Sequence record: OK272470.1
Strand: one strand, 5' to 3'
Length of the DNA stretch: 64,000 bases
Origin: Escherichia phage JLBYU50
The translations under genes were made by a program, and so were the position numbers. Under the pieces are notes generated by a model. The model ran no database searches, had not been told where the DNA came from, and saw only the letters and a list, made by a program, of their open reading frames with translations. Every line of letters begins with the position of its first letter. The first letter of the stretch is position 1. Shown here piece after piece: positions 9,977 to 39,194 of this stretch.

Positions 9977-10016
9977 TTATCTGGTGGGACTATGCTAATG
10001 GCGTAGATTTCATAGC

Positions 10017-10048
10017 AAAAAAAAACCCCGCTTCGGCGGGGTAATCAT
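10017..10048. terminator. stem-loop ccccgc-ttcg-gcgggg flanked by A9 run
   Basis: Perfect GC hairpin after tailspike gene; T-tract would be on the opposite strand, so orientation is ambiguous. Confidence 0.45.
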
Positions 10049-10166
10049 TGAGAATAACAATAGGAGTACATATGGAATCTCAACTCAGTCAACCTAAGCA
10101 GGTTATCAACGTCAAAGTGAACAAGCAGAGTATCGCTCATGATTTAAAAAGTAATGAGAACGCACT

Positions 10167-10412
10167 ATGAGAAAATTTTTAATAGGTATGTTCTGTACAT
10201 ATCCTGATAATAAAGTCAGTTCTACTAAAGTTTGGAATGCTATTGGTATGATTGTTATGTCCAGTATGTTTATTTATTTGGGAATTGATAAAGAAATTCC
10301 TGAATGGATGGGCTGGGCTTTTGTTTTTATGATCACACCATCCAGACTAATGAAGAATTTAATAGATTTACGTTGGGGCAGATCACCTGCTCCTGATAAG
10401 GAGGATAACTAA
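10167..10412 (+). CDS. small membrane protein
   Basis: 81 aa with hydrophobic segments; stop overlaps start of baseplate J-like gene. Confidence 0.45.
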   Translation: MRKFLIGMFCTYPDNKVSSTKVWNAIGMIVMSSMFIYLGIDKEIPEWMGWAFVFMITPSRLMKNLIDLRWGRSPAPDKEDN

Positions 10413-18896: not shown

Positions 18897-21716
18897 ATGT
18901 ATCCTATTCCTTTATTTATGTCAACAACATCAGCTTCAGTAGTAACAGCTACATCTATAACCACTTCCTCTATTGGTATTGCAATAGTTGGTAGTAAAAA
19001 GCAACTGACATACACAGTTTCACCGGAAGATGGTGCGTTATTTGATATAGCTTTTTCATCTTCAGATAATACCAAAATGGTTATAGATAATAGTGGTATG
19101 ATGGAGTTTGTTGCCGAAGGTGGTTTTGATGCAATAATGACAGCTAAAAATAATTTAGGTGCTGTCTTAACTGATCAATCTGGTGGTTATGCTTCAGAAT
19201 TAAGCGTGTACACTGAAAGTCTATCAGCTATGGATGTAGGCACTACTCAACAGTTGGTTGCTACAATCAGTCCAGAAGGTGCTAAAGATCTTCCAGACAT
19301 GGTAATTACGTACACCACAACAGATCCAGAAGTAGCTACTGTAAGCCCTACAGGATTAATAACTGCTCTTAAAGATGGTAATTGCCGTATAGGTTGTACT
19401 GCAACTTATCAAGGAACAGTGGTGGCCTCTGATAGTTCTTATTTAGGTGTTAATGCTATTCCTGTTATTTCTAATGTAACAGCCGTGGCAAACAGCTATG
19501 GAGACGTTCGTGTTGCTTGGGATGTAGCTGATCCGCTAGATGGTGATACTTATACTGTAGAAGTATTAGATTTAAGTAATAATAGTGTTCAGTGGACTAC
19601 AACAACCACGAATACTTACGCTTACTTTGATATCTCTGACTCTATTCCTCTTTATGGGTTTGCTCCAACATACCTTAAAATTAGCGTTAAGAGCACCAAA
19701 GCAGCAGCCGTTATCTTTAATAACTCAATAGCTACAGATGATTCGTTCATTAAAGAAGTTATTGTTTTTGCTGGACAAGATAACGTAAATGCACACTTTA
19801 CAGAACTATCTGGTGCAAATAAAGCAGCAATGAGTAGCACAACAGCCCGTAATGCATATGCTACGCAACGTGGTTTAGCAAATGCTGAAGTTCTTCCGTT
19901 AAATACAGCTTCTGGATCATCAGCAGCAGATAAATATGCTGACGATAAAGCTGGAACAGGTACACCAGACAACTACTGGTATGATCTGGATAACACAGCA
20001 GATGGGCCATGCTTAACTAACTTTATCACTAAAGTCACACCTTATGCAAGTAAGGTTAAAGCCATTATTTGGGGACAAGGTGAAAATGATGCTGTATCAT
20101 CATCTTCAACTGTTGCAGGTAGATACAGTAACACTACACGTTACCATGATGCTACGATAGCTATCTTTGATAAGATGCGTACAATAGTTCCTGCTTCTCA
20201 AGCAAAAATTGTTTGGCAGATCCTGGGACGTTCTTATTTATATGGTGTAGAAGTTAATGGTGTGGATTGGCAGAAGTACAGAAATGTACAAAGAACCATC
20301 TCTACAGCACGTGATGATGTTATCATTGGTTCTTGGGTAGATGGTGCTGAACGTTACAGTGGTTATGTTTATGAAGAAGGTATTGATGGTCGTATCCATT
20401 ATATTTCTTCTGTATACCAAACAGCAGCTACAAAACTTGCTAAATCAGCAGCAGACGGTACAGACCTAACATCAACGTCACCTGTTTGGGTTGATATGGC
20501 TGTTCCAACTGGAGCAACAGCTACTTCCCAATCTAATCAAGATACAATTTTAGTATGGGATGCTCAAGGCTATAGTAAACACTACTTCCGTAATATTAAC
20601 GTCTTAACAGCATCTGTATTAACTGAACAAACGCTTAATACGAACAGCTATACGTTTACCTATGCAGATCAAGTAGAACAATATGGTTTTGCAGCAGGAA
20701 CTACTATATTTGATGTTGCATATTATGATGAAGCAAATGATGTGTTATCTCCTTTAGTACGTTTTAATGTTAACGTTACAGCAGGAACCGTAGAAGATAA
20801 ACCTGTAGTGATGGATTATGATTTAACACAAGAAACTCTTCCATCAGATGTTAAGGTTAATGGTGGGAACTCTTTTGCTCGTGCTTCTGGAGATACACTT
20901 GTAGCCACTAACACCTTGGTTGCTCCGTTGGAGTATGTTGGCACTACCCCTGTAGGTAGACGTGTAACAGCTAACACAGCTACACAAATTTTTGTCAACA
21001 ACGCCTTAACAAGCGCAAGCCCGTGGGTAAAGACCAACTTAACTGTTTCAACTTCATCTGATAAATCTCCGGCTGGAACTACTGCCAATGTATTCAAATT
21101 AACTCCGACTACAACATCTGGTAGTCATATCTTAACTGCAACATATACTAACGCGTACAACATATATGCCGGACGTAACTGGTCTGCCTCTGTTTTCTTG
21201 AAAGCGAACGGGATTACTAAGGCCAAACTAAGATTAAAAGCAGGAACTGAAGTTAATGAGGGTACTTTTGATTTAGCAGCAGGTACATTTACAGGAAGTG
21301 AAGCTAATATTATATCTATGGGTAACGGTTGGTATCGTGCTATTCTGCATAAAACAGGGATAGCCAAACAGTCCTCCATAAGTTTTGAAATAATTGCCTT
21401 GGATGCAACTGGTGCGGAGATTTTCGCTGGGGATGGTACTAGTAACCTTGCAGTTTGGTTGCCACAGCTTGAAGGTGCTCCTACAGGAGAAACATCAAAA
21501 GCTGGAGCGCCTTATGTCTGCACATATCCTGGAAGTTTAGGAGGAGTATCCTTCACTATACCAAGGAACGGACATACTGGTGTGGATGTTTACTATTCCA
21601 ACGGGGACGTTGTTCGTGACGTATTCTCTGGTACGGCATCTACTTGGACAATAAACTACTCCAGCTTGTACGATTGGGGATCAGTCTTTATTACAGGTTT
21701 GAAATATTACGACTAA
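18897..21716 (+). CDS. tailspike with Ig-like domain and SGNH/SASA-type carbohydrate esterase-like domain
   Basis: Ig-like segment (ATVSPTGLITALKDGNCRIGCTATYQG); FAGQDN and WGQGEND motifs resembling sialate-O-acetylesterase GQSN / WxQGESD. Confidence 0.55.
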   Translation: MYPIPLFMSTTSASVVTATSITTSSIGIAIVGSKKQLTYTVSPEDGALFDIAFSSSDNTKMVIDNSGMMEFVAEGGFDAIMTAKNNLGAVLTDQSGGYASELSVYTESLSAMDVGTTQQLVATISPEGAKDLPDMVITYTTTDPEVATVSPTGLITALKDGNCRIGCTATYQGTVVASDSSYLGVNAIPVISNVTAVANSYGDVRVAWDVADPLDGDTYTVEVLDLSNNSVQWTTTTTNTYAYFDISDSIPLYGFAPTYLKISVKSTKAAAVIFNNSIATDDSFIKEVIVFAGQDNVNAHFTELSGANKAAMSSTTARNAYATQRGLANAEVLPLNTASGSSAADKYADDKAGTGTPDNYWYDLDNTADGPCLTNFITKVTPYASKVKAIIWGQGENDAVSSSSTVAGRYSNTTRYHDATIAIFDKMRTIVPASQAKIVWQILGRSYLYGVEVNGVDWQKYRNVQRTISTARDDVIIGSWVDGAERYSGYVYEEGIDGRIHYISSVYQTAATKLAKSAADGTDLTSTSPVWVDMAVPTGATATSQSNQDTILVWDAQGYSKHYFRNINVLTASVLTEQTLNTNSYTFTYADQVEQYGFAAGTTIFDVAYYDEANDVLSPLVRFNVNVTAGTVEDKPVVMDYDLTQETLPSDVKVNGGNSFARASGDTLVATNTLVAPLEYVGTTPVGRRVTANTATQIFVNNALTSASPWVKTNLTVSTSSDKSPAGTTANVFKLTPTTTSGSHILTATYTNAYNIYAGRNWSASVFLKANGITKAKLRLKAGTEVNEGTFDLAAGTFTGSEANIISMGNGWYRAILHKTGIAKQSSISFEIIALDATGAEIFAGDGTSNLAVWLPQLEGAPTGETSKAGAPYVCTYPGSLGGVSFTIPRNGHTGVDVYYSNGDVVRDVFSGTASTWTINYSSLYDWGSVFITGLKYYD

Positions 21717-21751: not shown

Positions 21752-22183
21752 TTAATCAGTGAAAATTACGCTTACATCTTCTTTAGAAAAGAGTTTATGA
21801 TCTTCACCTTTTGTCTCAAGAGTTTCATACAGGTTAAGAAGTTCTGAAACATCTTTCTCTACCAGTTTCTTCAATGTTGCAATTTTCTGTTTGCGATTCT
21901 TAATACGTTCAGCTACAACCTTACGTTGGTATCCAGCAGTACGATAACCTGAGAAAGTTACACCAGTGAGACTTGCAGTTACAGGATCGTAATGACGTTC
22001 AATCTGAAATTTATTAAAAGGTACAGCGTCATCACGAATAATCTTCCCGCCATTACTTACTTGACGAAGACCAGTAACTTGTTCTAGTCGTGCCATAGAA
22101 ATCTTTGGAGACAGACCAGAGTCTAGGTTCATACCATTGTTAATCAGTGCTTTCAGGGTGATTTTGCTGTTCAGTGTACTCAT
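21752..22183 (-). CDS. hypothetical protein
   Basis: RBS ggagga before ATG at 22183; 5' end overlaps 3' end of methyltransferase gene by 44 nt. Confidence 0.5.
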   Translation of the reverse strand: MSTLNSKITLKALINNGMNLDSGLSPKISMARLEQVTGLRQVSNGGKIIRDDAVPFNKFQIERHYDPVTASLTGVTFSGYRTAGYQRKVVAERIKNRKQKIATLKKLVEKDVSELLNLYETLETKGEDHKLFSKEDVSVIFTD

Positions 22184-22871
22184 TTAGTCGTTCCTCCGCT
22201 TGCTTAAAAATATTTACATCGGCTTCACAGCCTAAGTATTCTCTACCTGTTAAAAGTGCCGCAACTTGTGTTGTTGCACTTCCAGAGAAGAAGTCTAAGA
22301 CTACATCTCCTTCGTTGGTGTGTATATTAATAAGGTCACAAAACAAAGTCAAGTGTTTTTGTGTTGGATGAAAACGATCTGCTCCTTGATAGATAGGATA
22401 CTCAAACACACCCTTATGGTAGGAAGCATTGAAGGTTGGCTTAGAACCTTTAACACAAACAATAGCCATTTCTTTAGCGTTACTAAGGTAGTTAACACCA
22501 CTGTTGATGGGTACAGGGTTTGTTTTAATCCATTCAATAGTACGGAACATACGAAAACCAAGCGGTTCAAGGATTTCACGTAGCTCCTGGATCTTCCAGA
22601 TATCATACCAAACTATGCAAGTACCACCTTTTCTAAGCACCCTGTAGGCTTCTTTGAATACTTCTTTAAAGTAAGGAATATCTACAACATCCCAATCACC
22701 AAAGTTGTAAGATACACGGAATCTATCCGTATCTTTTCCAGTAGGCTCTCCAGATTGAAAATTTGTGTCACGAGAAATAGCATATGGTGGGTCAGTAAGA
22801 ATCAAATCTACACTATTGCTTTCGAGGGTTTGCAGGTAGTTTAATGCGGTGTTGTTTACAAATTCGCTCAT
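22140..22871 (-). CDS. DNA N6-adenine methyltransferase (beta-class, orphan)
   Basis: N-terminal DPPY catalytic motif and later VLDFFSGSATT SAM-binding motif; no adjacent restriction endonuclease. Confidence 0.75.
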   Translation of the reverse strand: MSEFVNNTALNYLQTLESNSVDLILTDPPYAISRDTNFQSGEPTGKDTDRFRVSYNFGDWDVVDIPYFKEVFKEAYRVLRKGGTCIVWYDIWKIQELREILEPLGFRMFRTIEWIKTNPVPINSGVNYLSNAKEMAIVCVKGSKPTFNASYHKGVFEYPIYQGADRFHPTQKHLTLFCDLINIHTNEGDVVLDFFSGSATTQVAALLTGREYLGCEADVNIFKQAEERLNEYTEQQNHPESTD

Positions 22872-25068: not shown

Positions 25069-27648
25069 TCAGTGACAACTAGCCCATGAGTTACCAACAT
25101 CGTAACCAGCAGTGAGAGGTACATTAAGATTGTAATACTCACCAGCTTTATTAACAGCAATAGATGCTAATTCTCCAGCACGACTGTAGGCTGTAAACCA
25201 ACCACCTTTCGGAGATTCATGTACGTTAGCCCAAATCTTGCCAGTACGTTTCTCTTCCTCTTCTTTCCAGGTATTAACTTTATCCAAACATTCTTTATCA
25301 ATTTTCTTTTGTTCTTCTGGATCATCAACTTGAGTCCAACCTAAAGATTCTTTAGAGAACCATTTAAAATGCACCAGATCACGAGTTACTTCAAGCTGTG
25401 CTTCATCGTGGTATGCAATCATTTGTTGAACGAATGACTTATTTTTCCAGTCATCAACAAAAAAGTCAACAGCTAATCCTTCTTCTTCGATAAGATCATC
25501 GTAGATAACCATTGCTCTTTTTGCACAAATAACACCACCACTCTGGAACAGAGAGTTAAGTATTGCGTGTGCAGATCGTGTAGGTACTTTCCTTCCATCA
25601 ATACCAAGAATGTATTTCTTACCTGTTTTAACCCAAAAATCATGCAGACGTTCTTTAAGAAGAGCAAGAGGTTTTGCAGCTTCCCAGAAAGCATCGTATA
25701 CAAGCTGTCCTGTATACATATCACTACCAATGGTTTTTGCTACTTTTGCAGCTTGAGCACCATAAGTAATACCATACTTAACAGATTTAGCAGGGCTTCG
25801 TTCAAACTTACGACCAATAGTATCAGAAATACGTCGAGCCATCATTGTATGAACATCATTAGGTTTTTCCAACAATAGAGCATTACAATATTCGTGTGGT
25901 TCCTGCTCGTACCGCCAACAGTAGTGTGATTCTATTTTTGCCTCAAGAGAATCAAAGTCATAACCAATTTGGAAGTATTTTGGAACTTCTACACCAAATA
26001 AGTTACGCATTTCATATCCGTACAGAGATGTTACACGTGGGATATTTGCTACTAACCTATGTTTCATACGAGATGTAGCTGCATCACACGTTGCAGCAGG
26101 AGTTGGTATACGACCATCAGCCCTTACTGCTGCCAGATAACCTTTATCGTAATCCTCTTCATCTTCTTCCCAATCAGCACCACCCCCTAAAATAGAGTTC
26201 CTACGGTGTTTATACGTAAGATACTGCACAATCTGCGTAGCATAAGGAAACTTTTCACCTAGTGCTTCCAAGTTAGGACAAATATCTTTCTCTTGCCCTT
26301 TTGTAAAGGAAGGGTTAGTAAGCACTTTAACACCACGACCTTTAGCTTTAGCAATACGATCTCTTAGTTTCCATTCCAAAGTTTCTGGTGTGCACTCCAG
26401 ATGATCACATCTGTCCTGGCAGAAGTTAGATGCTAATGTTTGATCAACGTAGTCACGAATAGCTTTCTCCATTTGTGCTTCATCTTTCTTAATCTTAGTG
26501 CCAGATTTAAGAGTGATATCTTTATCTTTATATTCAGATGGACTCCAACCTAAACCAACTAACCAGTTTTTAATATGTGTAGTGTCATCTAAAGTAGCAG
26601 GTACTGTAGGATCACAAATAGGTTCTTCTGCTGGAATAGGGAGTTTAAACTCTTTACCTAATGCAAATAACCACCAACCATCTTCTTTTTGTACAAGTTC
26701 ACCAGAATGTTTCTCTGCAAACTTTATCATGTTACTTGAAGGTTCACCATTCTTTTTAAACTGTAGTTTAGGTGGAATGAATGATTTCAAATAACCTTTA
26801 GTAGCAGGTTTGGGAGGTAGTACAGGTTCTGCCTCTAAACGACATGCTTCCATTCGAGCATCCAGATCACGAATATTATCTTCTGCTTGTTTCATATTGA
26901 AAGCAAAGCCACGGTGCTCTTGACGTGTAATAATATCAGCTACACGTTGTTCTAAGTTAAATGGTTCAGACCACTTATTATAATCACCCCACTCTTCCAT
27001 CAAATAACGGAACACTGCGGTGTTAGCTTTGTTATCGTAAATACAGTAATACAGCATATCTGCTGCAAATGTTTTAAATCTTTCAGTTTCAGGAATGTTT
27101 TTTCTAAAATCAATTTTAACATCCCCTCCAGCTTTCTTAGATAACTCTGCCAGACTATGACCACCGAAGCGATCAGGGTTTAGTGTCTTACTTAAGATCA
27201 TAGTATCACAAATTTCAATGTTACTATTACCCCAAGTATTGTACTTAATACTATAGTTGAGTTTAAAAAATAATTTAATTGCCAGTAAGTCGAAGTTAAT
27301 GATGTTGTGTCCAACTACTTTGGTAATTTTATAGTTTGAATTACCTTTAAATTTACCTGTTCCATTTACAAAATCAGGAAAATCTTTAAGAGGGAAATGG
27401 GTATATTCTAAATGCTCATATTCCTCCAGTCGGTATTCATACTTTCCGTCAGTCTCAATATACGGACGACCATCGAAAAGATATTTATCACCATCATGGA
27501 AAGCAATAATCTCTCCAGTATCATGACTTTCGCACACAATACAGTGCATTGCAAAACTATCTTTTAAACGATATGGACTTGCCAAGTAATCTACACTTTC
27601 GTCATTAAGCAAGTTGTTACTTTCAATGTCGAAAGTAAAAGCTCCCAT
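25069..27648 (-). CDS. DNA polymerase, family A, with 3'-5' exonuclease domain
   Basis: Exo I FDIESNN; motif A-like GYDFDSLEAKIE; motif B-like KSVKYGITYGAQ; motif C MIAYHDEAQLEV. Confidence 0.8.
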   Translation of the reverse strand: MGAFTFDIESNNLLNDESVDYLASPYRLKDSFAMHCIVCESHDTGEIIAFHDGDKYLFDGRPYIETDGKYEYRLEEYEHLEYTHFPLKDFPDFVNGTGKFKGNSNYKITKVVGHNIINFDLLAIKLFFKLNYSIKYNTWGNSNIEICDTMILSKTLNPDRFGGHSLAELSKKAGGDVKIDFRKNIPETERFKTFAADMLYYCIYDNKANTAVFRYLMEEWGDYNKWSEPFNLEQRVADIITRQEHRGFAFNMKQAEDNIRDLDARMEACRLEAEPVLPPKPATKGYLKSFIPPKLQFKKNGEPSSNMIKFAEKHSGELVQKEDGWWLFALGKEFKLPIPAEEPICDPTVPATLDDTTHIKNWLVGLGWSPSEYKDKDITLKSGTKIKKDEAQMEKAIRDYVDQTLASNFCQDRCDHLECTPETLEWKLRDRIAKAKGRGVKVLTNPSFTKGQEKDICPNLEALGEKFPYATQIVQYLTYKHRRNSILGGGADWEEDEEDYDKGYLAAVRADGRIPTPAATCDAATSRMKHRLVANIPRVTSLYGYEMRNLFGVEVPKYFQIGYDFDSLEAKIESHYCWRYEQEPHEYCNALLLEKPNDVHTMMARRISDTIGRKFERSPAKSVKYGITYGAQAAKVAKTIGSDMYTGQLVYDAFWEAAKPLALLKERLHDFWVKTGKKYILGIDGRKVPTRSAHAILNSLFQSGGVICAKRAMVIYDDLIEEEGLAVDFFVDDWKNKSFVQQMIAYHDEAQLEVTRDLVHFKWFSKESLGWTQVDDPEEQKKIDKECLDKVNTWKEEEEKRTGKIWANVHESPKGGWFTAYSRAGELASIAVNKAGEYYNLNVPLTAGYDVGNSWASCH

Positions 27649-27713: not shown

Positions 27714-27736
27714 GTAAAGGGGCTTTCGCCCCTTCT
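27714..27736 (-). terminator. stem-loop downstream of ORF 27739..28134
   Basis: aagggg-ctttc-gcccctt hairpin; weak U-tract. Confidence 0.45.
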
Positions 27737-28144: not shown

Positions 28145-29917
28145 TTAATAAGAACCATCAGGAATATTCTCTGGGTTACTTGTGTATTGATCGTAATCGT
28201 GAAGTGTAGCTGTTTTAATCTCATAGAAGAAACTACCTGCTGCACCAGTCTCTGAGAACTCACGGTTCTTTAGAATGTAGCAATATGTGCGGTTACGTTC
28301 CATAGGATCTTCAGCTTGTTTATCACGCTCCAGCGCAATTGTGATACCAGCACCTTTAGCAAGGAAGCTACTACCCATTGCATCATCTTCTACAATATGT
28401 TCATTACTATTGTTAGAAGACTTTTTAACGTGTGAAATTACAACAATGGTAATTGCGTACTCTTTCATAATGCGTTTGAGCCACGTCGCAAGTTCCTCTT
28501 GTTGTGACACGTCCATACCAGAAAGCAAGTCAGAATAAGGGTCGATAACAAGAATGGTTACTCCGAAATAAATAATCATTTCCAGAACCTTCTCTTTAAT
28601 CACATCTACGTTAGCTCCACGATCATCACAAACATAGAAACGTGGTGTTCCATCTTCTCGTTCGTAAAAATCACGAATCTTTTCTTCATTATCTTTTAAA
28701 ATCTTTTCCTTCTCTTCTTTCGTTTTACGGTGAAGAGGGATATGCAAGAATGAAGACAGTAAGTTACGAGAATACTTCTTATACGTTGCCTCCAAAGATA
28801 AAATACCAAGAGTATGTTCTGGGTGTGCAAGAATAATGTGCTTCGTAATCTCGTTAACCAACAGTGTTTTACCGATACTTGTTTTTGCAAGTATAACAGT
28901 AATTTCTTCTTCTACCAAGCCTCCACCTAACATATTAGAAGCAACACGCATGAATGGAGGAAGGGTGATCATTTTAGCTTCCAGGCATTCCAAGGCTGCT
29001 TCATACAGTACGTTAGAAGCGTAAACACCAGCAGGTGTGTACAGTTTAGCTTTGAAAAAGCGATCAATAAAATGATCAATTTTTCCTTCTACTAGTGCCT
29101 GGTTAGGATCTTTAACATCAGTTAGTTCCATCACGTAAACTTTATTACGTGGTAAGATTTTAACACATTTCTCAACTGCTGCACGTCCAGCGTCATCATT
29201 GTCCATACATAGAACAATCTTTTTAAATTGGTCTAAGAATTTATAACGATGTTGAAGCTGCTTATGCAGAGATGTTTCGCCACAAGTACCAGATACTACA
29301 GCAGGAACAGGATATTTACCACCCTTGTTATAATCTTTTAGCATCTGTGTTGCAGCCAGCATATCGTGTTCACCACCAACGATTAGAATAGTACCGCTGT
29401 GGTTACGATATTTAAACTCCCCAAAAAGATCACAATCCTTTCCTGTTTCACCGATAGGATGTGAGAAATCTTTTGGATCGATACGTTGTTTATACCCCGC
29501 AATATTGTAATCTTTAGTTGTAGGGTATAGTGTTGAAATTACTTCGCCAGTAGCTTCATCGTACATATAACGTACACCGAAAGGCTTAGAGATATCTTCA
29601 CGAATACCGCGATAACCTTTTGGATTAGTTCCAGTGCTGGCTTTTAGTTTATCATGTACTTCTGGATTAAACTCACTACCCAAGATATCCTCCTCTTCAA
29701 TTTCTTCGCCGTGTGCATTTAACCATTTTTGATCAGGGATAGTAAAGCCACAAGAAAAACAATGTGCGCCTCGATGGTCTTCATCGGCATCTAAGCCATA
29801 TACCATCAAATTGTTTTGTGATCGATCACGCCCTCCTTTCATACAACGAGGACACCCAGTATGTCCTTCTTGACTTAGATCAATGTTATACCCATATTTA
29901 TTTACAACATAAGACAC
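28145..29917 (-). CDS. bifunctional DNA primase-helicase (T7 gp4-like)
   Basis: N-terminal zinc ribbon CPRCx17CFSCG; TOPRIM-like IVGGEHDML and LCMDNDDAG; P-loop ILAKTSIGKT in C-terminal helicase half. Confidence 0.8.
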   Translation of the reverse strand: MSYVVNKYGYNIDLSQEGHTGCPRCMKGGRDRSQNNLMVYGLDADEDHRGAHCFSCGFTIPDQKWLNAHGEEIEEEDILGSEFNPEVHDKLKASTGTNPKGYRGIREDISKPFGVRYMYDEATGEVISTLYPTTKDYNIAGYKQRIDPKDFSHPIGETGKDCDLFGEFKYRNHSGTILIVGGEHDMLAATQMLKDYNKGGKYPVPAVVSGTCGETSLHKQLQHRYKFLDQFKKIVLCMDNDDAGRAAVEKCVKILPRNKVYVMELTDVKDPNQALVEGKIDHFIDRFFKAKLYTPAGVYASNVLYEAALECLEAKMITLPPFMRVASNMLGGGLVEEEITVILAKTSIGKTLLVNEITKHIILAHPEHTLGILSLEATYKKYSRNLLSSFLHIPLHRKTKEEKEKILKDNEEKIRDFYEREDGTPRFYVCDDRGANVDVIKEKVLEMIIYFGVTILVIDPYSDLLSGMDVSQQEELATWLKRIMKEYAITIVVISHVKKSSNNSNEHIVEDDAMGSSFLAKGAGITIALERDKQAEDPMERNRTYCYILKNREFSETGAAGSFFYEIKTATLHDYDQYTSNPENIPDGSY

Positions 29918-29929
29918 ATGATTCTCCTA

Positions 29930-30199
29930 CTAAAATGATTCGTTTGTCTCCATAATATATTGCATTTCCAAATCTTCCATATGTTTCTTAAATTGGTAAA
30001 CAATTTCCGATGGGGAAATATCTATATCAAAAAGTTCTTTTGTACCAGAATAAAATCTAATACCATCAACAATAAGACCACCATAATAATCCCAATCACT
30101 TTCTCGTGAGAAAGGGTTAGGTTCTTCATAATAGTAATCTACTTCAACAATAATAGGTTCTTTATTATCTTGTTTATACTCAAAATCAAAAGTGTTCAT
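29930..30199 (-). CDS. hypothetical protein
   Basis: 89-aa ORF; start overlaps stop of upstream gene. Confidence 0.45.
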   Translation of the reverse strand: MNTFDFEYKQDNKEPIIVEVDYYYEEPNPFSRESDWDYYGGLIVDGIRFYSGTKELFDIDISPSEIVYQFKKHMEDLEMQYIMETNESF

Positions 30200-31143
30200 T
30201 ATAAATCCTCGATAAGCAGTCTGCGGGTTTCATTTAAATCATCAATATTGTAGTTATCTCTTACATACTTAGCAAGAGCCAATCCTTTCTCAATACAAAC
30301 ATCAGGGGATTCGATTAAGTATTCTACAATATCTTTCCACTCTTTAACTGAATCAGCAAAGAAGATTAGATCTTTAAATTCTTCAGTATAGTAGTTCTCT
30401 CGTGGTGAACAAACGAGTGGCAAACCTTTAGCACCAGCTTCAAGAATTTTTAAATTACTTTTGGCATTATTAAAATGATTATTTACTAACGGAGCTATGG
30501 AGATTTGATGACCATCGTATGCTTCCATATAGCACTCATAAGGACGAATACCTTCATAAACACAATTTGGTTGAATATCTTCTTTAATTTGCAACCATTG
30601 AGCACTACTTAACTCTTCGTGATCTCTACGAAATCCACATAAAGTTAAATCTTTACCAAAACTAGGAAGAATAGCTAAATCATGTTTATGTGTTTCACTT
30701 CCCGCCCAAACCAGTGGACTTTTAGAATAACGATCTTTAGTAAGAACAAACTGTCCTTCATCAAAAGGTAGTCCGTTAGGCACAATATGTACATTATCAT
30801 TGTATTGGCTTAATTCAACCTTTAATGCTGGAGTTGTTGTAGTTACAAGATCGCTTCTTTCAAGGAACCATTTTAGGTCATCTCGGATTTGATTTTCAAA
30901 TAATCCTTCCAGCATATGCCCTTCAGGAATAATTAAAGAATCATCCAGATCCATTACCAATTTAAACCCAAGTTGTTTAAGAGCCAGGAAACCTGGCTTT
31001 CCACGGGTTGGTACTCCATTGAACACAAAAATATTATGCTTAGGATTAATGGTCAGTTTGCGTTTATATGGCAAAATGATTCTGTGAAAATCACATACAC
31101 TATACTTTTCATTTCCGCGTGTGTCAAGAATAATATTAGGCAT
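30199..31143 (-). CDS. glycosyltransferase (GT-B fold candidate), paralog 1
   Basis: C-terminal SNLKILEAGAKGLPLV (GT-B type EAxAxGxP motif); paralogous to next gene (VWAGSETHKHDL vs VWAGGASHEPDL). Confidence 0.55.
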   Translation of the reverse strand: MPNIILDTRGNEKYSVCDFHRIILPYKRKLTINPKHNIFVFNGVPTRGKPGFLALKQLGFKLVMDLDDSLIIPEGHMLEGLFENQIRDDLKWFLERSDLVTTTTPALKVELSQYNDNVHIVPNGLPFDEGQFVLTKDRYSKSPLVWAGSETHKHDLAILPSFGKDLTLCGFRRDHEELSSAQWLQIKEDIQPNCVYEGIRPYECYMEAYDGHQISIAPLVNNHFNNAKSNLKILEAGAKGLPLVCSPRENYYTEEFKDLIFFADSVKEWKDIVEYLIESPDVCIEKGLALAKYVRDNYNIDDLNETRRLLIEDL

Positions 31144-31154
31144 ATCGCTCCTTA

Positions 31155-32168
31155 TTAAAGACTTTCAATAACTTGACGACGCAGTTCATTGGCATCTGCA
31201 AGATTATAATTAAGACGAACGTGTTCTGCAAGCATCATACCACGATCTTCTGTGTATCTAGGGTTCCTCATTAGCTTGACAACTTCATAATGCCAAGATG
31301 CTTTAGAGTCTGCATAGATAACAGCCTTTGCATCTACCGGATTGAAGTACGGCAGCACAGGAGAACAGATAATAGGAAGACCCTTTGCACCTGCTTCCAA
31401 AATCTTCAAATTGCTTTTACAGTTGTTGAAGTCATTATCTACCAGAGGAGCAATTGCAATACTGTGACCGTCATACACAGACATATACTCACCTAAATTT
31501 TTAATAGCTGGTTTATACTGTGCATTTGGAATTTTACGTTTTACTTTAACCCACTCCGCAGTAGTTAGATACTGACTATTATTTCCAACAGGTGCAGAAG
31601 GATACACTTCATACCCTGCAATTGTCAATAGTGTATCATCAAATGTATTAGCTACAAGAGATAAATCAGGCTCATGGCTTGCTCCTCCAGCCCAAACAAT
31701 AGGCGTGTCAGAATAACGGTCTTTTGTTAAAGTAAATTGACCTTCGTCGTAAGGCAGTGCGTTTCTAATAACGACAACATTACGATTTAAATGACGAATT
31801 TTGTAAGCTAGGTATTCTGTTGTTACTGTAACAACATCTGCTAACTTAACCATCTCTACAATAGTCTTTGAGTGATTAGTAAATACGCCAGCCATATAAT
31901 GTTCAGGATTAAGCGAATAAAAATCATCTAAATCAACAATAATCTTAACACCTTGTGCCTTCAGGCGTTTAACTTCGTCTGATCCACGAGAATACACTCT
32001 ATTAAAAACTAAAACGTCTTTCTTAGGCTTAAACGTATTTCCCGCAAATGGCATTACAATACGATGGTAATCACAACCACTGCCTAACTTATTATCACAC
32101 TTAAGTACAGGAGTATTAGGATTTACCATATTTTTGAGCCTCCTCATAAGAGATAAAAGTTTTACCAT
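31155..32168 (-). CDS. glycosyltransferase (GT-B fold candidate), paralog 2
   Basis: SNLKILEAGAKGLPIICSP; alternative start ATG at 32129 with RBS gaggagg would reduce overlap with upstream gene. Confidence 0.55.
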   Translation of the reverse strand: MVKLLSLMRRLKNMVNPNTPVLKCDNKLGSGCDYHRIVMPFAGNTFKPKKDVLVFNRVYSRGSDEVKRLKAQGVKIIVDLDDFYSLNPEHYMAGVFTNHSKTIVEMVKLADVVTVTTEYLAYKIRHLNRNVVVIRNALPYDEGQFTLTKDRYSDTPIVWAGGASHEPDLSLVANTFDDTLLTIAGYEVYPSAPVGNNSQYLTTAEWVKVKRKIPNAQYKPAIKNLGEYMSVYDGHSIAIAPLVDNDFNNCKSNLKILEAGAKGLPIICSPVLPYFNPVDAKAVIYADSKASWHYEVVKLMRNPRYTEDRGMMLAEHVRLNYNLADANELRRQVIESL

Positions 32169-32802
32169 TGCGAAGATCCTCCAGTGATTGTTTATATTGT
32201 TCCCAGTTTACACCAATCCCCTGTTCTTTCTCTTCTTTTGACAGATTCGCAAAAGGTAAAGGATTATCTCCAAACACATCGTCAGGATGGATAAACGCCA
32301 TAATTCGAATAGGACATGGTACGCCGTGAATACCTCGATTCAAACCTGCCAGTGGAACACGCTGAATCCACTCTGCATCCTCATATCCATAACCGTGAGT
32401 GTATGAGCGGAAATAGCCAGCTTTCTCAATAACTGCACGGGAATACATACCAAACTGGCACATGCCTAGCTCCCAAATAACCACTTCTCCTTCAATACCT
32501 TTTACTTTATCTTTAAAATATTCAGGCATACCAAAGAAATCCCAACCGTTTTCCTTCGCCTGTTTTACAAAGTATGTTTCCCAACCTGGTACAACCGGAT
32601 AGCAATCATCATCAAAAATAAACCAGTAGTCATACCCTTCATCATAAAACTTTTTCATCAGTTCATTACGGGCATATGCAACACCTTTTCGTTCACGATC
32701 ATACTGTACAACAAAAGTAGCATTAGGATCAGTTACAAGATAATCTTTAAGAGGACGCTTACCTACAGTAATAACACCAACACCAATTTTTGTATTTTCC
32801 AA
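32116..32802 (-). CDS. glycosyltransferase (GT-A fold candidate)
   Basis: DxD-like FIFDDDCYP and GYGYEDAEW motifs. Confidence 0.45.
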   Translation of the reverse strand: MENTKIGVGVITVGKRPLKDYLVTDPNATFVVQYDRERKGVAYARNELMKKFYDEGYDYWFIFDDDCYPVVPGWETYFVKQAKENGWDFFGMPEYFKDKVKGIEGEVVIWELGMCQFGMYSRAVIEKAGYFRSYTHGYGYEDAEWIQRVPLAGLNRGIHGVPCPIRIMAFIHPDDVFGDNPLPFANLSKEEKEQGIGVNWEQYKQSLEDLRNGKTFISYEEAQKYGKS

Positions 32803-32811
32803 AATAACTCC

Positions 32812-33375
32812 TTAAATAATTTTATTCATGTCTTGACAATGTAAAAGGTGTGAAACAGCTTTTCTAGGATCATCATTACCTAAACGGTATGTGTGAAATA
32901 AATATAACCCACGTAGTAAACCTAGCCTTTTATTGTTAGCGTGCAATGCTTTAGAGAAAATTATATCAAACTGTATTGATCTTTCCTCAAAAGGAATTTC
33001 ATTCCACAGACTCTTACGAAAGAGAAGAAAGAATCCTGCTAAGATAGCATCTGTAGGTACTTCCTCTATTGAGTTTCCCCATTCTAGATGTGCTCTTTTT
33101 GCAATCTCAATGTGGTGTAATATATTCGGATCTTCACTTCTTTCATTATTAAATAATTGATATGTTGATCCCAATCTGTTACAAGATGCACCAAGAACAT
33201 CAAAATCAGGATTTGAACGGACTATTGATTCCAGCCAAGCAGGTTGTTCTGGAAGAAGAAACATTGTATCAATGTCTCTTAGGCAAATCCAACTATCTTC
33301 TGGTAAGACACTTATTGTGTCATTGATACCTTTTCCAATATCTCCAGAAAGATAGGGAGTTATGTGAAATATCAT
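32812..33375 (-). CDS. hypothetical protein (possible glycosyltransferase-like)
   Basis: 187 aa, co-transcribed with the three glycosyltransferase candidates; DID acidic motif. Confidence 0.4.
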   Translation of the reverse strand: MIFHITPYLSGDIGKGINDTISVLPEDSWICLRDIDTMFLLPEQPAWLESIVRSNPDFDVLGASCNRLGSTYQLFNNERSEDPNILHHIEIAKRAHLEWGNSIEEVPTDAILAGFFLLFRKSLWNEIPFEERSIQFDIIFSKALHANNKRLGLLRGLYLFHTYRLGNDDPRKAVSHLLHCQDMNKII

Positions 33376-34123: not shown

Positions 34124-34633
34124 TTAGCGATAGAATTGATGTTCTTTGTAGCGGTACACTAGAACCATATCTTTTTCCCAGTGTGCTCTTATTGTAGATT
34201 TTTTAAAGTATAATGCTCCTTTTGTAATATCTAATGCAATTCGTAATTCTGGAAAATGCGTATCGAGATAAAGTAGACGTTCTGCTATAGCCTTAGCTTC
34301 CTTCCACTTATCACGTTCCATAACGTTGAATGTCTTTGTGTAAGAGAATTGTCCTTTTTGAAACAAAACTTCTTTTATAGTATCAGGGAAATATGAATCT
34401 CTAGCCCTATTCAATACTACATTACCAACAGCAGACATACCGCGCTTTCCTTGATTACGACTTTCTGCATAGATTGCACAAGCTAATAGATTTTCTTTAC
34501 TATCACGCTTTGTACACTTGTGAACTACTTTAGCAGTTTTTACGTTTGCAGCTTCGGCTTGCGCCACAACAGGTGTAAATGTAAAAGCAGTTAAGGATAG
34601 TAACGCAATTGCGACAAAGGTTTTTATTGACAA
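34124..34633 (-). CDS. secreted SleB-like cell wall hydrolase (candidate endolysin)
   Basis: Signal peptide MSIKTFVAIALLSLTAFTFTPVVAQA; core AIYAESRNQGKRGMSAVGNVVLNRARDSYFPDTIKEVLFQKGQFSY matches SleB-type hydrolase signature. Confidence 0.7.
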   Translation of the reverse strand: MSIKTFVAIALLSLTAFTFTPVVAQAEAANVKTAKVVHKCTKRDSKENLLACAIYAESRNQGKRGMSAVGNVVLNRARDSYFPDTIKEVLFQKGQFSYTKTFNVMERDKWKEAKAIAERLLYLDTHFPELRIALDITKGALYFKKSTIRAHWEKDMVLVYRYKEHQFYR

Positions 34634-35349: not shown

Positions 35350-35375
35350 AAATATGCGCCCCGAAGGGCGCTATG
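35350..35375 (-). terminator. rho-independent terminator downstream of TerD-like gene
   Basis: gcgccc-cgaa-gggcgc hairpin followed on - strand by ATATTTTAAAT. Confidence 0.6.
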
Positions 35376-35380: not shown

Positions 35381-35977
35381 TTACTCGAACCAATCGTCGC
35401 CAGCGCCAAACGCTTTAACTACATCGTAAATGTCAAGCCCAGCTTTACCTACACCATATGCTTTCAGTTTCCATTCGTTATCTTCTCGCACCAGGGAGGC
35501 AACGTGGCAAATGGTATTACCTGCAAGTTCTGGAGCCAAGAAGTCAAAATCCAGCAGTTCAACGTTACGTTCATCATCGAAGATTTTAAGGAAACCTTCG
35601 GTAGCGTGACCAAGGCGTTTCTTACCCGTTTCGTCATCAATAGTAATTACGAATGCAATTTCCTGTGCTTCAGCAGAGATATTATCCAGTGTAACATCAA
35701 TCTGCTCCATTTGTCCTACACCATCACGAACATCTTCACCTGCAAAAGTAGAACGTTCAGGATCAAATTTCTGCGCGTAGCACACCAGGTGACGAGGAGA
35801 CAACAGTTCCGGCAGACCAGATGCATTGTGTCGGCAAATCAGAGCACTAACATCCAGATCCAGTTTTTCGTTAGATTTCCAAGAGAATTCCAGACGAATG
35901 CGTTTCAGTGCTGGTGCAATCTTTTTCAGAGAAACTTTTTCGCTAGAACCTTTTTTCAGGGAAATTTTCTGAGTCAT
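35381..35977 (-). CDS. TerD-domain stress protein
   Basis: N-terminal repeated ISLKK...VSLKK; central FAGEDVRDGVGQMEQIDVTL resembling TerD Ca-binding GDN..G.GDDE..I motif. Confidence 0.65.
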   Translation of the reverse strand: MTQKISLKKGSSEKVSLKKIAPALKRIRLEFSWKSNEKLDLDVSALICRHNASGLPELLSPRHLVCYAQKFDPERSTFAGEDVRDGVGQMEQIDVTLDNISAEAQEIAFVITIDDETGKKRLGHATEGFLKIFDDERNVELLDFDFLAPELAGNTICHVASLVREDNEWKLKAYGVGKAGLDIYDVVKAFGAGDDWFE

Positions 35978-36049
35978 AATTTATTATCTCCTTTGTTGTT
36001 AATTTACGTTGTCTATTTTACTAATCTTTTCTACAAAGTCAAGCGTTTT

Positions 36050-36844
36050 TTACGCTTTTGCTCCAAATTTTTTAACCCACTCACCAAACTCTTCGGATAA
36101 CAGTTTATCGTAAAGTTCTTCATCAGACAAGGACAAATCTGCAATACCGATAAAATCAACATTATCGTATTCTTTTGCCAAGTCTTTCAGGAATTTAAAG
36201 TTTGCATTACCTACACCAACCATAAACCAGTAAACAGGTGTATTGCGGTGTTTGTTCAGTAAGCTACGTACTGCTGAAGTATCCATGTTCTCCCCGTCAG
36301 TTTGGAAGAAAATCATTGCAGGAGTACGATCAACTTGTGCATCAGTATCTACAACCTGTTCTACAACAGTACGTGTTACTTCTACAAGTTCTTTTTTACC
36401 AGTTAGTTTAGCAAGGAAACCTTTAGCTGGAACTTCTTCATACTCAACGACTTCGCGTGTAATATTTTTCATAGGTACACTACCGAAGTATGTATCATAA
36501 ATGTCTTGCATTACTGGAGCATAAGCTGTACCACCATTGATGCAAACATTAGACATACAAGAGCCGACATAATCATCATATACATCAGCCGTTGCAGGAG
36601 GCAGTTCAAAAGAAGAACTATTGAAAGCCCACATGTCAATCTGCGCATTATCATCAAACTTCATACCAAACGGCAGCAGCTTACCTACAAAATCACTAAC
36701 AGTGCCATCACGATATAGCTCACACATACTACCCGAAATATCTAAGGCGCTACCGACACGAAGAACAACATCGTTAATCTTTTTCTTACGCAGAGATACA
36801 GTAAGAGTTTCTTGACGTTTTTTAAGACTGATTTTATTGGACAT
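36050..36844 (-). CDS. von Willebrand factor A domain protein (TerY-like)
   Basis: MIDAS motif DISGSM near N-terminus; N-terminal ISLKK...SLRKKK resembling TerD leader. Confidence 0.6.
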   Translation of the reverse strand: MSNKISLKKRQETLTVSLRKKKINDVVLRVGSALDISGSMCELYRDGTVSDFVGKLLPFGMKFDDNAQIDMWAFNSSSFELPPATADVYDDYVGSCMSNVCINGGTAYAPVMQDIYDTYFGSVPMKNITREVVEYEEVPAKGFLAKLTGKKELVEVTRTVVEQVVDTDAQVDRTPAMIFFQTDGENMDTSAVRSLLNKHRNTPVYWFMVGVGNANFKFLKDLAKEYDNVDFIGIADLSLSDEELYDKLLSEEFGEWVKKFGAKA

Positions 36845-36845
36845 A

Positions 36846-37115
36846 TTATTTCTCCTTTCTGACTGTAATGTTAGTAACTTCTAAATCCACTTCTACCACT
36901 TCTGTATCATATAAAATACAGTTAAGTTGACCTCTTTGTGAACCGTTCAGACACATTGCTTGGTTTGTATTAACCTTAATAAACACTAAGTTTATGAACG
37001 TATCTAAACCAGAATCTTGATAGGCAACATAATATACAAATGTATCACCTGTGTCAAGTTCTCCAAAACATTTAGGTTCATCTGATTTGTCGTCTTTGAT
37101 ATTAAATTTAAGCAC
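36846..37115 (-). CDS. hypothetical protein
   Basis: 89-aa ORF, overlapping stop/start with neighbours. Confidence 0.4.
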   Translation of the reverse strand: MLKFNIKDDKSDEPKCFGELDTGDTFVYYVAYQDSGLDTFINLVFIKVNTNQAMCLNGSQRGQLNCILYDTEVVEVDLEVTNITVRKEK

Positions 37116-37671
37116 TGTCTTCTCCTTTACCTGCTCTCAAGCCTAAATAGAAAGCCTCTCTGGTGATTTTTTGCAACTCGTTTAAAGAGATAGTTACAAC
37201 TAAATCATCTTCAATTTCTAGCTTTGAGTCTTCTTCTGTCTCAATGCAAGTATTATGCACTTTGTGGTAAGGATTGTCAACACGTTTAAATTTATTATTT
37301 TCAGTGCTGAAGAAGCAATCTGGATCTTCTTCTCCATCACCCCAACCCTGGTTAGGGTCTTCTTCAGATCTTTCTGTTGGGATCTCACCTGTAAAGTGCT
37401 CTTCTAATACCAGAGCAATCCCATCTCCAAGATCGGAAGAGAACATCAAATTACAAACTTCTTCCCAAGGCATAGACCACTTAAATCTTTTACGATTGCC
37501 ATGTTTATCTTCTTCGTTAGAGAAAACACTACCATAGCTATCATAATTGCCATACATCTCTTCAACAACTTTACCACCTTTCAAAAGAAATAGGTAGCAA
37601 GGAGAGCCATCGAAAGAGGTAGAAAGAGCAGCATTACCAGACTCTTTGCACAAGAAACTAAAACACCCCAT
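37108..37671 (-). CDS. hypothetical acidic protein
   Basis: 187-aa ORF. Confidence 0.45.
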   Translation of the reverse strand: MGCFSFLCKESGNAALSTSFDGSPCYLFLLKGGKVVEEMYGNYDSYGSVFSNEEDKHGNRKRFKWSMPWEEVCNLMFSSDLGDGIALVLEEHFTGEIPTERSEEDPNQGWGDGEEDPDCFFSTENNKFKRVDNPYHKVHNTCIETEEDSKLEIEDDLVVTISLNELQKITREAFYLGLRAGKGEDSA

Positions 37672-37871
37672 TATACACCAACCTTAAGATCAATTATAGC
37701 CAAAGTGGTTTCAGAGTGTGTTTGCTCGTCTACAGGTGCAGTCATGTGATAATACAAAAAATCTTCGGCATCATACCAATCTGACTCTTGACCTTGTTTC
37801 CAACCATCAATGAAAGCATCTTCCATAATTGTTTGTAACTCTTCACGAGTTAAGTGAATATCTTTACTCAT
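37671..37871 (-). CDS. hypothetical small protein
   Basis: 66 aa, start/stop overlaps. Confidence 0.4.
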   Translation of the reverse strand: MSKDIHLTREELQTIMEDAFIDGWKQGQESDWYDAEDFLYYHMTAPVDEQTHSETTLAIIDLKVGV

Positions 37872-38104
37872 TACACATTCTCCTCTTTTACCAATTCCAT
37901 CGTTGAACTATCAAAACCATCTTTAGAAGAATAGGTATAGACAGAACGTAGTTCTCGCAGGACAGTGAATACATTGGGATCATCTAACCAAGCATCCTGG
38001 AGGAGAACATAACGATCTTCATTGTCGTACTGGACAGCAATCATAGAACCAGACAGTTTGTAAATTTTAATATTCATAATATATTTCTCCTTAAAGTAGA
38101 CCAC
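37871..38104 (-). CDS. hypothetical small protein
   Basis: 77 aa. Confidence 0.4.
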   Translation of the reverse strand: MVYFKEKYIMNIKIYKLSGSMIAVQYDNEDRYVLLQDAWLDDPNVFTVLRELRSVYTYSSKDGFDSSTMELVKEENV

Positions 38105-39194
38105 GTTTAACAGTTTGAATCATACCATCTTCAAGAGATTGCACTTCTTGAATGTAATCAATACGCGCAGCACGGGCTTCAGTGTTGATTCGGTTAGTTT
38201 CTTCCAACATTTTAACTAAGTTTTCTTGATCGCGACGTAATGTCTCAATATCCAATACTTGACGATTAGCAAGTTGTGTAGCTTCAATTTGGTTTTGTGC
38301 CGCCAGATCACTACCCATTGCAATAGCAGCATTAAATTCATTCAGCACATTGTTCTGTGTATCGGCTGCTTTCTTCTGGCGTAGACTTTCAATATACATA
38401 GAAAAGTTTGCAGAGTAAGCAGGGATAACATTATTCACAATATTACGGGCTGATCGCATCAAACTTGCAGATACTTTCTGCATACTTTGTACACGTGGCC
38501 CCATCTGAACACACAGTAAGCGTAGGGCTTTCAGGTCTGCAATACGAATTTCAAGCAGATCCATAGTATCACGAGTACGTTGACGCTCTTCTACCTCATT
38601 TTCAGGCAGTGTATTAAGGCGAACTTCTTCTTTTTCATACGTAGCTGTTAGAAGCTCTATATCTCTGTTTAAGCTAAGAGCATATTTGGCAATAGCCTCT
38701 TCTAAACGTTGCAGATATCGTAAAGAATCTTCTTCTTTTTTCAAGTCTGTTTGGAGTGTCTTTACCAAACCTTCAATACGATTATTGATGGTGTCAAATT
38801 CTCCAAACAAATCTTCTTTCATACCTAATACTTTCTTAACTAGTTTACCTAAGCCTTTAGATTGCTTAATAGAGTTAGGATCAAGTTGCTTTGCTTGCTT
38901 AATAAGTGCAGTTAAACGTTCACTCATTTCATCCCCCTGAGATGAACGCTGGTGTTTAAGCACTTCAGCATTAAGGTTACGAAGAGTAAGTCCTGCATCA
39001 GCACCAACTTGTTCAATCTCTTCACGAGACATTGGAGGCAGCATTTGTACAGGTCGTGCAACAGCAGGGGCATATACAGGGCTTGCATCCATAGCACTTG
39101 GAGCAAATAAAGACTTACTTTTTTCTGTTGTTGCCGTGAATACACTCATTTCAGACGGTTTGCTTTTTACGGCACTGATAAAAGGACTGGACAT
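38091..39194 (-). CDS. TelA-like (toxic anion resistance family) coiled-coil protein
   Basis: 367-aa all-helical protein; assignment rests on overall pattern and genomic linkage with TerD/TerC/vWA genes. Confidence 0.45.
   Translation of the reverse strand: MSSPFISAVKSKPSEMSVFTATTEKSKSLFAPSAMDASPVYAPAVARPVQMLPPMSREEIEQVGADAGLTLRNLNAEVLKHQRSSQGDEMSERLTALIKQAKQLDPNSIKQSKGLGKLVKKVLGMKEDLFGEFDTINNRIEGLVKTLQTDLKKEEDSLRYLQRLEEAIAKYALSLNRDIELLTATYEKEEVRLNTLPENEVEERQRTRDTMDLLEIRIADLKALRLLCVQMGPRVQSMQKVSASLMRSARNIVNNVIPAYSANFSMYIESLRQKKAADTQNNVLNEFNAAIAMGSDLAAQNQIEATQLANRQVLDIETLRRDQENLVKMLEETNRINTEARAARIDYIQEVQSLEDGMIQTVKRGLL

Follow-up and report, generated by a model that had tools for sequence, protein, structure and literature searches.

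Four predicted soluble glycosyltransferases beside the replication genes of Escherichia phage JLBYU50, and their possible role in building a rhamnose-containing glycan on protein

Among the closest described systems is the glycosyltransferase cassette of the cluster F mycobacteriophage Che8, which comprises several soluble phage enzymes encoded outside the structural module. Che8 virions are reported to be glycosylated, and gp108, gp109 and gp110 are reportedly the enzymes responsible, a finding attributed to Freeman (2023). The T-even DNA glycosyltransferases (AGT, BGT and TAGT) are also phage-encoded, use nucleotide-sugar donors and lie near DNA metabolism genes, while chloroviruses and giant viruses possess capsid-glycan transferases (A064R of PBCV-1; R655 and R699 of Mimivirus). 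On the bacterial side, the adhesin protein O-glycosyltransferases TibC and Aah are soluble heptosyltransferases that decorate a protein surface, and SpsA, CgeB and SpsI-L take part in glycosylation of the Bacillus spore surface. Here I describe a cluster of four glycosyltransferase genes from Escherichia phage JLBYU50 (record OK272470.1), found in a 64,000-nucleotide stretch of its genome (hereafter referred to as the window), where positions 30199–33375 coincide exactly with four minus-strand open reading frames (ORFs). I tentatively propose that this soluble enzyme set makes a glycan containing rhamnose, and that the acceptor is a protein, most likely one of the virion, and not the phage DNA.

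The genes, labeled GT1 to GT4 in reverse order of transcription, are all on the minus strand. GT4 (32812–33375, 187 residues, a predicted compact GT-A glycosyltransferase) is the first cluster gene transcribed, followed by GT3 (32116–32802, 228 residues, also GT-A), which has a TTG start behind an AAGGAG ribosome-binding site. GT2 (31155–32168, 337 residues) is a predicted GT-B enzyme, similar to the glycosyltransferase family that is itself named GT4, and its first 53 nucleotides are shared with the end of GT3; GT1 (30199–31143, 314 residues) is its GT-B paralog. The Klebsiella ortholog lacks the first ∼20 residues of GT2, and the true start may therefore be an internal methionine (M8 or M14).

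The 3.8 kb around the cluster are 98.2–99.3% identical at the nucleotide level to ∼55 sequenced Justusliebigvirus phages (subfamily Stephanstirmvirinae), including phi92, the BASEL phages Bas60-62 (PaulScherrer among them), muut, and the Durham phages Paula (98.9%) and PATM (98.4%); the phage Pau of the literature was equated by name with the GenBank entry Escherichia phage Paula. Most of the genome lies outside the window, and PaulScherrer (150 kb, fully annotated, 98.6% identical over the queried 3.8-kb cluster region) was used as a whole-genome proxy. The cluster itself is not new: its genes, their annotation and the idea that they glycosylate DNA are already public. RefSeq and several GenBank relatives label all four genes “glycosyltransferase” (gp163-166 in phi92), and the BASEL records have two “putative disaccharide synthase” and two “putative glycosyltransferase” entries, the former label being taken as a hint of the GT-B fold and nothing beyond. 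A viral transferase cassette combined with a nucleotide-sugar pathway is also a known kind of system; no paper with a functional test of these four genes was found.

The cluster resembles the Che8 cassette in consisting of several soluble transferases encoded outside the structural module, in that relatives often have sugar-type Methyltransf_24 partners, and in that both can be read as building an oligosaccharide rather than adding a single sugar. GT3 also matches (99.2% probability) the transferase domain of gp98 of mycobacteriophage Pacc40, another of the cluster F enzymes, whose gene lies at the end of the genome that in Che8, of the same cluster, bears the three glycosyltransferase genes. 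The differences are that neither GT3 nor GT4 has a significant BLASTP or hhalign match to gp108, gp109 or gp110, that the host is Gram-negative, that a pathway for deoxythymidine diphosphate (dTDP)-rhamnose appears to be present in the genome, and that there is no methyltransferase in this cluster. Similarity to the chlorovirus and giant-virus enzymes, which act in eukaryotic hosts, is at the level of the fold, with 7–14% identity. A parallel with the Bacillus spore surface may be drawn as an analogy: GT1 matches PF13524, which I take to be the CgeB-type family, and SpsA, solved with dTDP, is a structural neighbor.

The preliminary description of this locus, which was made from the sequence alone, had proposed four putative glycosyltransferases, and this holds for all of them: each has a full-length match to a PHROG glycosyltransferase family, with E-values of 1e-79 to 1e-149 (3.9e-149 for GT2 and phrog_7162), while none of the proteins is covered by an NCBIfam model. 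It had also identified two paralogous GT-B-like proteins by the motif KILEAGAKGLP; GT1 and GT2 are indeed 41% identical (E-value 1e-83), and the segment is found in both. GT1 passes the gathering score of Pfam PF13524 (Glyco_trans_1_2; 28.4 bits for a score of 25). GT2 alone stays below the Pfam cutoffs (17.9 and 14.7 bits), and its Pseudomonas ortholog passes both PF13692 (28.9 vs 27) and PF13524 (27.6 vs 25). A family alignment of 33 sequences places invariant residues K228, S229, K232 and E235 in the C-terminal nucleotide-sugar-binding motif (the LEAxAxGxP segment), with L234, A236, G237, A238 and K239 at least 90% conserved, and the family profile weakly matches TreT and MshA, retaining enzymes of the GT4 family. 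GT1 and GT2 are therefore assigned, from their sequences, to the predicted GT-B fold and the GT4-like Glycos_transf_1 superfamily. Two GT-B copies are present in Justusliebigvirus, in Phapecoctavirus and in the contigs L010 and L018, and a single copy at the other loci. This single copy is always nearer to GT2 than to GT1 (66% vs 39% in the Klebsiella phage, 42% vs 37% in Pseudomonas prophages, 43% vs 35% in Burkholderia), suggesting that GT2 is the ancestral core enzyme and GT1 a lineage-specific duplicate.

The GT-A-like protein with DDD and GYGYED motifs that had been noticed in the sequence corresponds to GT3. Residues D64, D65 and D66 are invariant, as is the pattern Y138-G139-x-E141-D142, and the predicted structure (predicted local distance difference test score, pLDDT, of 89) possesses a GT-A fold, nearest to those of GlfT2, ppGalNAc-T1, the chondroitin polymerase K4CP, beta4GalT7, TarP and the Listeria rhamnosyltransferase RmlT. 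A Foldseek search of the GT3 model against viral structures returned unnamed or generic transferases only, and no DNA glycosyltransferase. GT4, previously listed as a possible fourth transferase, proves to be a real one: it has no Pfam model, but combines its PHROG match with a model of a compact GT-A domain (pLDDT 95) and with invariant residues D34-x-D36, H161 and H176. With a Rossmann-like fold in the models and an invariant DxD in both, GT3 and GT4 are predicted to belong to the metal-dependent DxD class of GT-A glycosyltransferases, and the structural neighbors across the pair (TarP, TarS, RmlT, K4CP, GlfT2, SpsA) are polysaccharide- and protein-glycosylating enzymes. The family of GT4 is discrete, with ∼1,200 clusters at 50% identity, and its members either stand alone, with ∼180 residues, or form the C-terminal part of fusion proteins with a TOD1_MUCI70 or Glycos_transf_2 domain; one such fusion also carries a sugar-type methyltransferase domain (Methyltransf_24). 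Domain combinations of this kind are typical where oligosaccharides are assembled step by step and their sugars methylated, and would suit a similar role here. Assignment by hidden Markov models, with PHROG and Pfam, places all four proteins among the glycosyltransferases and none in a DNA-glycosyltransferase family. The maximal Kyte-Doolittle score over 19 residues is 0.8–1.2 for the four proteins, no transmembrane segment is predicted, and three of the four are acidic (isoelectric point, pI, of 5.2–5.6); the enzymes are thus predicted to be soluble, and presumably cytoplasmic.

For the donor sugar, the PaulScherrer genome encodes a complete set of dTDP-L-rhamnose enzymes, all of which exceed the NCBIfam equivalog cutoffs (RmlA 473.7 vs 360.7, RmlB 443.3 vs 365.1, RmlC 259.8 vs 155.8, RmlD 253.8 vs 224.1). 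The genes are ∼70 kb from the transferases, outside the window, among ribonucleotide reductase (RNR) and thymidylate genes, and are presumably present in JLBYU50 as well, given its 98–99% identical relatives. RmlC and GT4 have identical numbers of matches in the phage database, 54 at ∼99% identity or above, corresponding to Justusliebigvirus, and 77 at 60–80%, corresponding to Phapecoctavirus and allies; this co-occurrence was read from match counts per identity band, as opposed to a per-genome table. The reduced Klebsiella relative phi1_175008 retains the rhamnose-specific steps RmlC and RmlD, and of the transferases it has GT4 and GT2 at the conserved locus, with GT3 relocated; neither RmlA nor RmlB is encoded at that locus or within the first 50 kb, the part that was read. 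The full RmlA-D set thus appears to be distributed like the transferases, and from the matching distributions of RmlC and GT4, dTDP-L-rhamnose is a likely donor for at least one of the enzymes.

The genomic neighborhoods of homologs point to the nature of the acceptor. In Stephanstirmvirinae and divergent relatives the locus is itself conserved, in the order TelA/vWA/TerD, Hydrolase_2, transferases, an 89-residue ORF, primase-helicase and PolA, and the order TerC/Band_7/TelA/vWA-TerF/TerD/Hydrolase_2/transferases/primase is kept in the metagenomic phage L010 (52–63% identical) and in the Klebsiella relative. The number of transferases at the locus varies with the host genus, with four in E. 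coli phages and two in the Klebsiella phage. Elsewhere the surroundings are those of late genes. On four Pseudomonas chromosomes, a prophage carries a GT3 ortholog (hhalign E-value 6e-62) and an overlapping GT2 ortholog, and the genes that directly follow the pair are the metallopeptidase, TerS-like, TerL, portal and Mu-F genes; a small Big_2-domain protein is encoded just ahead of the pair in three of these prophages (L019-L021, ∼6625–7266), with no match in L023. A GT3-like/GT2-like pair also opens the TerS-TerL-portal-protease-capsid operon of the 36-kb siphophage contig L015. GT4 homologs are similarly placed: gp39 of the 38-kb Cellulophaga phage phi18:2, which has no annotated nucleotide-metabolism gene or DNA polymerase, lies between the portal/Mu-F and protease/capsid genes beside a Methyltransf_24 gene, and in contig L011 the homolog is flanked by the terminase and portal genes, in the company of two Methyltransf_24 genes and of genes for a deacetylase, a GT2 and a UDP-galactopyranose mutase.

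Among bacteria, a GT2 ortholog in Burkholderia dolosa and Trinickia (43% identical to GT2, and 63% between the two bacteria) has conserved synteny with an invasin/intimin-type inverse autotransporter, which points to a protein acceptor. The likeness to TibC and Aah, namely soluble enzymes acting at a protein surface, is one of neighborhood in these two Burkholderiaceae; the cluster proteins have no homology to TibC or Aah, and the phage encodes no homologs of the proteins that neighbor the Burkholderia ortholog. Separately, a phage-like contig (L024, from a metagenome-assembled genome labelled Acetivibrio, with RNR, RecA and GroES genes) carries GT2-like, Glycos_transf_1 and TibC-like (autotransporter heptosyltransferase-like) genes at 7974–11646, another link between the GT2 family and protein glycosylation. 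Since the modules recur among the late genes for packaging and head formation, in phages for which the making of modified bases is implausible, and in bacteria beside an adhesin, these contexts suggest a protein acceptor and, in phages, a virion protein.

Taken as a mechanism, two GT-A enzymes (GT4 and GT3) and two GT-B enzymes (GT2 and GT1) would act sequentially to build a short oligosaccharide on an acceptor other than DNA, with at least one step drawing on dTDP-L-rhamnose from the phage's own RmlABCD, encoded outside the window. The acceptor would be a protein, with the structural proteins of the particle (capsid, decoration, sheath or immunoglobulin (Ig)-domain fibre) as the best candidates, and the glycan would be made in the cytoplasm before or during assembly, yielding a virion with a glycan coat. 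One possible acceptor class, suggested by the Big_2 neighbor in the Pseudomonas prophages, is a Big_2 fibre; the window encodes a 939-residue lateral tail fibre (18897–21716, plus strand) with a Big_2 Ig-like domain (51 bits). The structural proteins were also screened for Ser/Thr-rich tails as an acceptor feature; the sheath has one, which was considered and rejected. In Justusliebigvirus the tail sheath (L002 10170–11576) has NSQNSNSSTVSS at its C-terminus, and the sheath of Klebsiella phage 05F01 has TTTSTNSNTTTVSA (compared with L026, L027 and L028), and the feature does not correlate with the transferases, phAPEC8 being without it.

Of the other possible targets, the phage DNA is the one that the preliminary description had put forward, stating that the enzymes may hypermodify it against restriction or CRISPR: rhamnose or other sugars would be added to hydroxymethylated or otherwise activated bases and shield them from nucleases. 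This has been proposed in print for such phages (Olsen, 2020), and also doubted in print. The location of the genes is in its favor, as the cluster adjoins the primase-helicase and PolA genes with a synteny that is kept in divergent relatives, and the rml genes sit among those for RNR, thymidylate synthase and thymidine kinase. GT3 also has weak partial matches to TAGT (PF20691) and to the PHROG for beta-glucosyl-hydroxymethylcytosine (HMC)-alpha-glucosyltransferase (phrog_842). However, the former, at 23.3 bits, is below the gathering score of 27.5 and covers only positions 37–96 of the 205 in the profile (the nucleotide-binding region), so that GT3 was not retained as a TAGT, and the latter is confined to residues 28–68. 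A tblastn search with GT3 recovered no T-even phages, and none of the four proteins matched the T4 alpha- and beta-glucosyltransferase (AGT, BGT) families in a Pfam scan at E-values up to 1. Near-identical phages, moreover, behave as if their DNA were unmodified. The phi92-like phages are “exceptionally susceptible” to restriction-modification (RM) systems, of types I, II and III for Bas60-62, despite their “putative dTDP glycosylation machinery” (Maffei, 2021; PMC8594841). Pau and PATM are restricted 10^7-fold by BREX, a drop in plating efficiency of seven orders of magnitude, and are absent from the BrxU-sensitive phages (Picton, 2021; PMC8565348), whereas BREX acts on unmodified DNA and BrxU cleaves a broad range of C5-modified cytosines (PMC13390438). 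The latter source counts the first Durham phage batch, to which Pau and PATM would seem to belong, as “non-modified genomes”. The rest of the genome agrees with these phenotypes. The annotated PaulScherrer genome has no ThyA-family hydroxymethylase, no TET/JBP enzyme and no DNA-base kinase, and its “thymidylate synthase” (bas60_0224, L004 19625–20596, 323 residues) has a weak ThyX match only (35.5 bits vs a cutoff of 87.9), which indicates a putative divergent flavin-type enzyme and not a ThyA-family hydroxymethylase. The annotation does include Dam-like, Dcm-like and further DNA (adenine) methyltransferases, enzymes that need ordinary bases, and the window itself encodes a DNA N6/N4 methyltransferase (22140–22871, minus strand; PF01555, 107 bits), contrary to the earlier statement that no other base-modifying enzyme is visible there. 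Finally, the module occurs in phi18:2, with neither annotated nucleotide metabolism nor a DNA polymerase, and at prophage and small-phage loci with no nucleotide-metabolism or DNA polymerase genes in the inspected flanks, and the fusions to other transferase domains and methyltransferases point to oligosaccharide building. These observations, which set the cluster apart from the T-even enzymes, contradict the proposed DNA hypermodification, which I consider highly improbable; the classification of the enzymes speaks against it directly, and the composition of the virion DNA indirectly, through the restriction phenotypes.

The preliminary description had named virion proteins and host glycans as fallback targets, and it is to these that the evidence now points. 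The main rival to a virion protein is a glycan of the host envelope, in which case rhamnose or other sugars would be added to a host glycolipid or polysaccharide intermediate; I regard this as rather unlikely. Candidates would be the lipopolysaccharide (LPS) core, the O-unit, the enterobacterial common antigen (ECA) or the NGR receptor glycan, modified on undecaprenyl phosphate at the inner membrane face; superinfection would thereby be blocked, or progeny kept from adsorbing to debris. Rhamnose is common in enterobacterial O-antigens. Both GT-B/GT4-like enzymes and GT2-like GT-A enzymes are standard machinery for LPS, teichoic acid and exopolysaccharide, the nearest structures listed above fit such a role, the phages depend on surface glycans (with NGR and LPS core glucose as receptors), and the dependence of transferase number on host genus would also be in keeping with it. 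Against this, all four proteins are without a transmembrane or obvious membrane-anchoring segment, and no flippase, polymerase, ligase or partner of the Gtr type (GtrA flippase, GtrB, GtrC-type), as used in O-antigen modification at the membrane, is annotated in PaulScherrer. These are strictly lytic phages whose infection cycles are short, the orthologs inside late packaging and head operons are oddly placed for conversion genes, and the bacterial orthologs accompany an adhesin and not a polysaccharide locus. More doubtful still is another kind of target, either a host protein, for takeover or counter-defence, or a small molecule such as the nucleoside-like product predicted for the Ter-type cluster (TerD, vWA, TelA) with phosphoribosyltransferase and HAD genes. 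The Ter-to-primase gene order is kept in the L010 lineage and the Klebsiella relative, many genes of the genome are counter-defence-like (macrodomain, Sir2, NAMPT, phosphoribosyl pyrophosphate (PRPP) synthetase), and the bacterial GT2 family accompanies a protein substrate that is not a phage protein. Yet the modules are kept in the Pseudomonas prophages, L015 and L011, with no Ter genes in the examined flanks, and in phi18:2, with none annotated genome-wide, and no specific candidate emerged.

Several points weigh against glycosylation of a virion protein, the reading preferred here. No report of a glycosylated virion protein was found in the literature on phi92-like phages. The cluster sits in the replication module and not in the structural module, and GT3 and GT4 are without detectable homology to the Che8 enzymes. 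As the rml genes are ∼70 kb away, the link to the donor sugar rests on the matching distributions alone. In phAPEC8, all four transferases are present but the sheath is without the Ser/Thr/Asn-rich C-terminal tail. The neighborhoods are guilt by association, and transferases of prophages can also be lysogenic-conversion genes. Ten phages including the coliphage JEP7 were reported without glycoprotein staining; the kinship of JEP7 to phi92 is not established, and this was not counted as evidence.

Around the cluster, transcription runs in the order GT4, GT3, GT2, GT1, the 89-residue ORF, primase-helicase and PolA. The ORF (29930–30199, minus strand; phrog_4240, E-value 8e-35) is acidic, with a pI of 4.1, and separates GT1 from the primase-helicase gene (28145–29917, minus strand; Pfam Toprim_2 and DnaB_C), the next gene, after which the 859-residue PolA is transcribed (25069–27648, minus strand). 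The ORF is found at the same position in contigs L010, L012 and L018, and not at the loci of the Pseudomonas prophages; it shares synteny with the cluster, and may or may not belong to the glycosylation module. The adjacency to the primase-helicase gene that had been described earlier thus stands, with only this ORF in between, but the transferases are on the minus strand and lie upstream of it, not downstream. Cotranscription with the replisome genes, which had also been proposed, is plausible: the intergenic gaps in the cluster are of 9–12 nucleotides where the genes do not overlap, and there is no terminator-like hairpin between 35356 and 27734, the only strong hairpins being those at 35356–35371 and 27717–27734. 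The former is GC-rich (six of six pairs are G-C), terminator-like on both strands, and the probable upstream boundary of the transcription unit. The latter, without an assigned strand and a consensus match only, lies between the primase-helicase and DNA polymerase genes, just downstream of a small ORF that follows the primase-helicase gene, and is a possible downstream boundary. The former hairpin and a promoter-like site at 34693–34665 (minus strand) are likewise consensus matches only. The promoter scan gave 59 sites, against 52.6 ± 8.8 in shuffled sequence, and was not enriched; the operon boundaries consequently rest on gene spacing and the two hairpins. From these, one transcription unit is probably bounded upstream by the 35356–35371 hairpin and includes the hydrolase, small ORFs, the four transferases and the primase-helicase.

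This hydrolase, encoded between the Ter genes and the transferases (34124–34633, minus strand), is of the SleB cell-wall type (PF07486, 72 bits), has an N-terminal signal-peptide-like sequence, and is distinct from the annotated endolysin elsewhere; its position is kept in L010 and the Klebsiella relative. The Ter-type stress-response cluster just upstream of the transferases (35381–39194, minus strand) comprises TerD (35381–35977, 98.6 bits), a vWA-TerF-like protein (36050–36844, 133.9 bits) and TelA (38091–39194, 118 bits), all on the minus strand. PolA is here without the intein that interrupts that of PaulScherrer (L001 3435–6749), the presence of the intein varying within the genus. GenBank also contains “Campylobacter phage” records (MG065639, MG065689, MG065656 and others; host C. 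jejuni) that are ∼98% identical across the region, for which the host attribution is probably wrong, or which are probably contaminating coliphages.

The phi92-like and phAPEC8-like phages are among the coliphages with the broadest host range, and are being collected for therapy. The practical value of the present analysis is limited, as the genes were already annotated, the DNA idea had been both raised and doubted in print, and the proposed acceptor is a putative one. It does illustrate that a common assumption, whereby transferases in a replication module imply DNA glycosylation, is unsafe here. If the host surface is remodelled, this would represent a new mechanism of superinfection exclusion or receptor masking in a strictly lytic phage. 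It is conceivable, if somewhat speculative, that the GT3-GT2 pair, GT4 and phage-made dTDP-rhamnose form a widespread and unrecognised module for virion-protein glycosylation in phages that infect Gram-negative bacteria; its proposed range, stated with the same reserve, would span Stephanstirmvirinae coliphages, Klebsiella phages, Pseudomonas prophages and marine siphophages, with particles coated in a rhamnose glycan. If the particle is indeed glycan-coated, no earlier system of this kind would be on record for phages with Gram-negative hosts, and the present one would be the first, extending virion glycosylation beyond the actinophages, and would have a bearing on antibody recognition, clearance and stability; it could also bear on the broad host range of the phi92-like phages.

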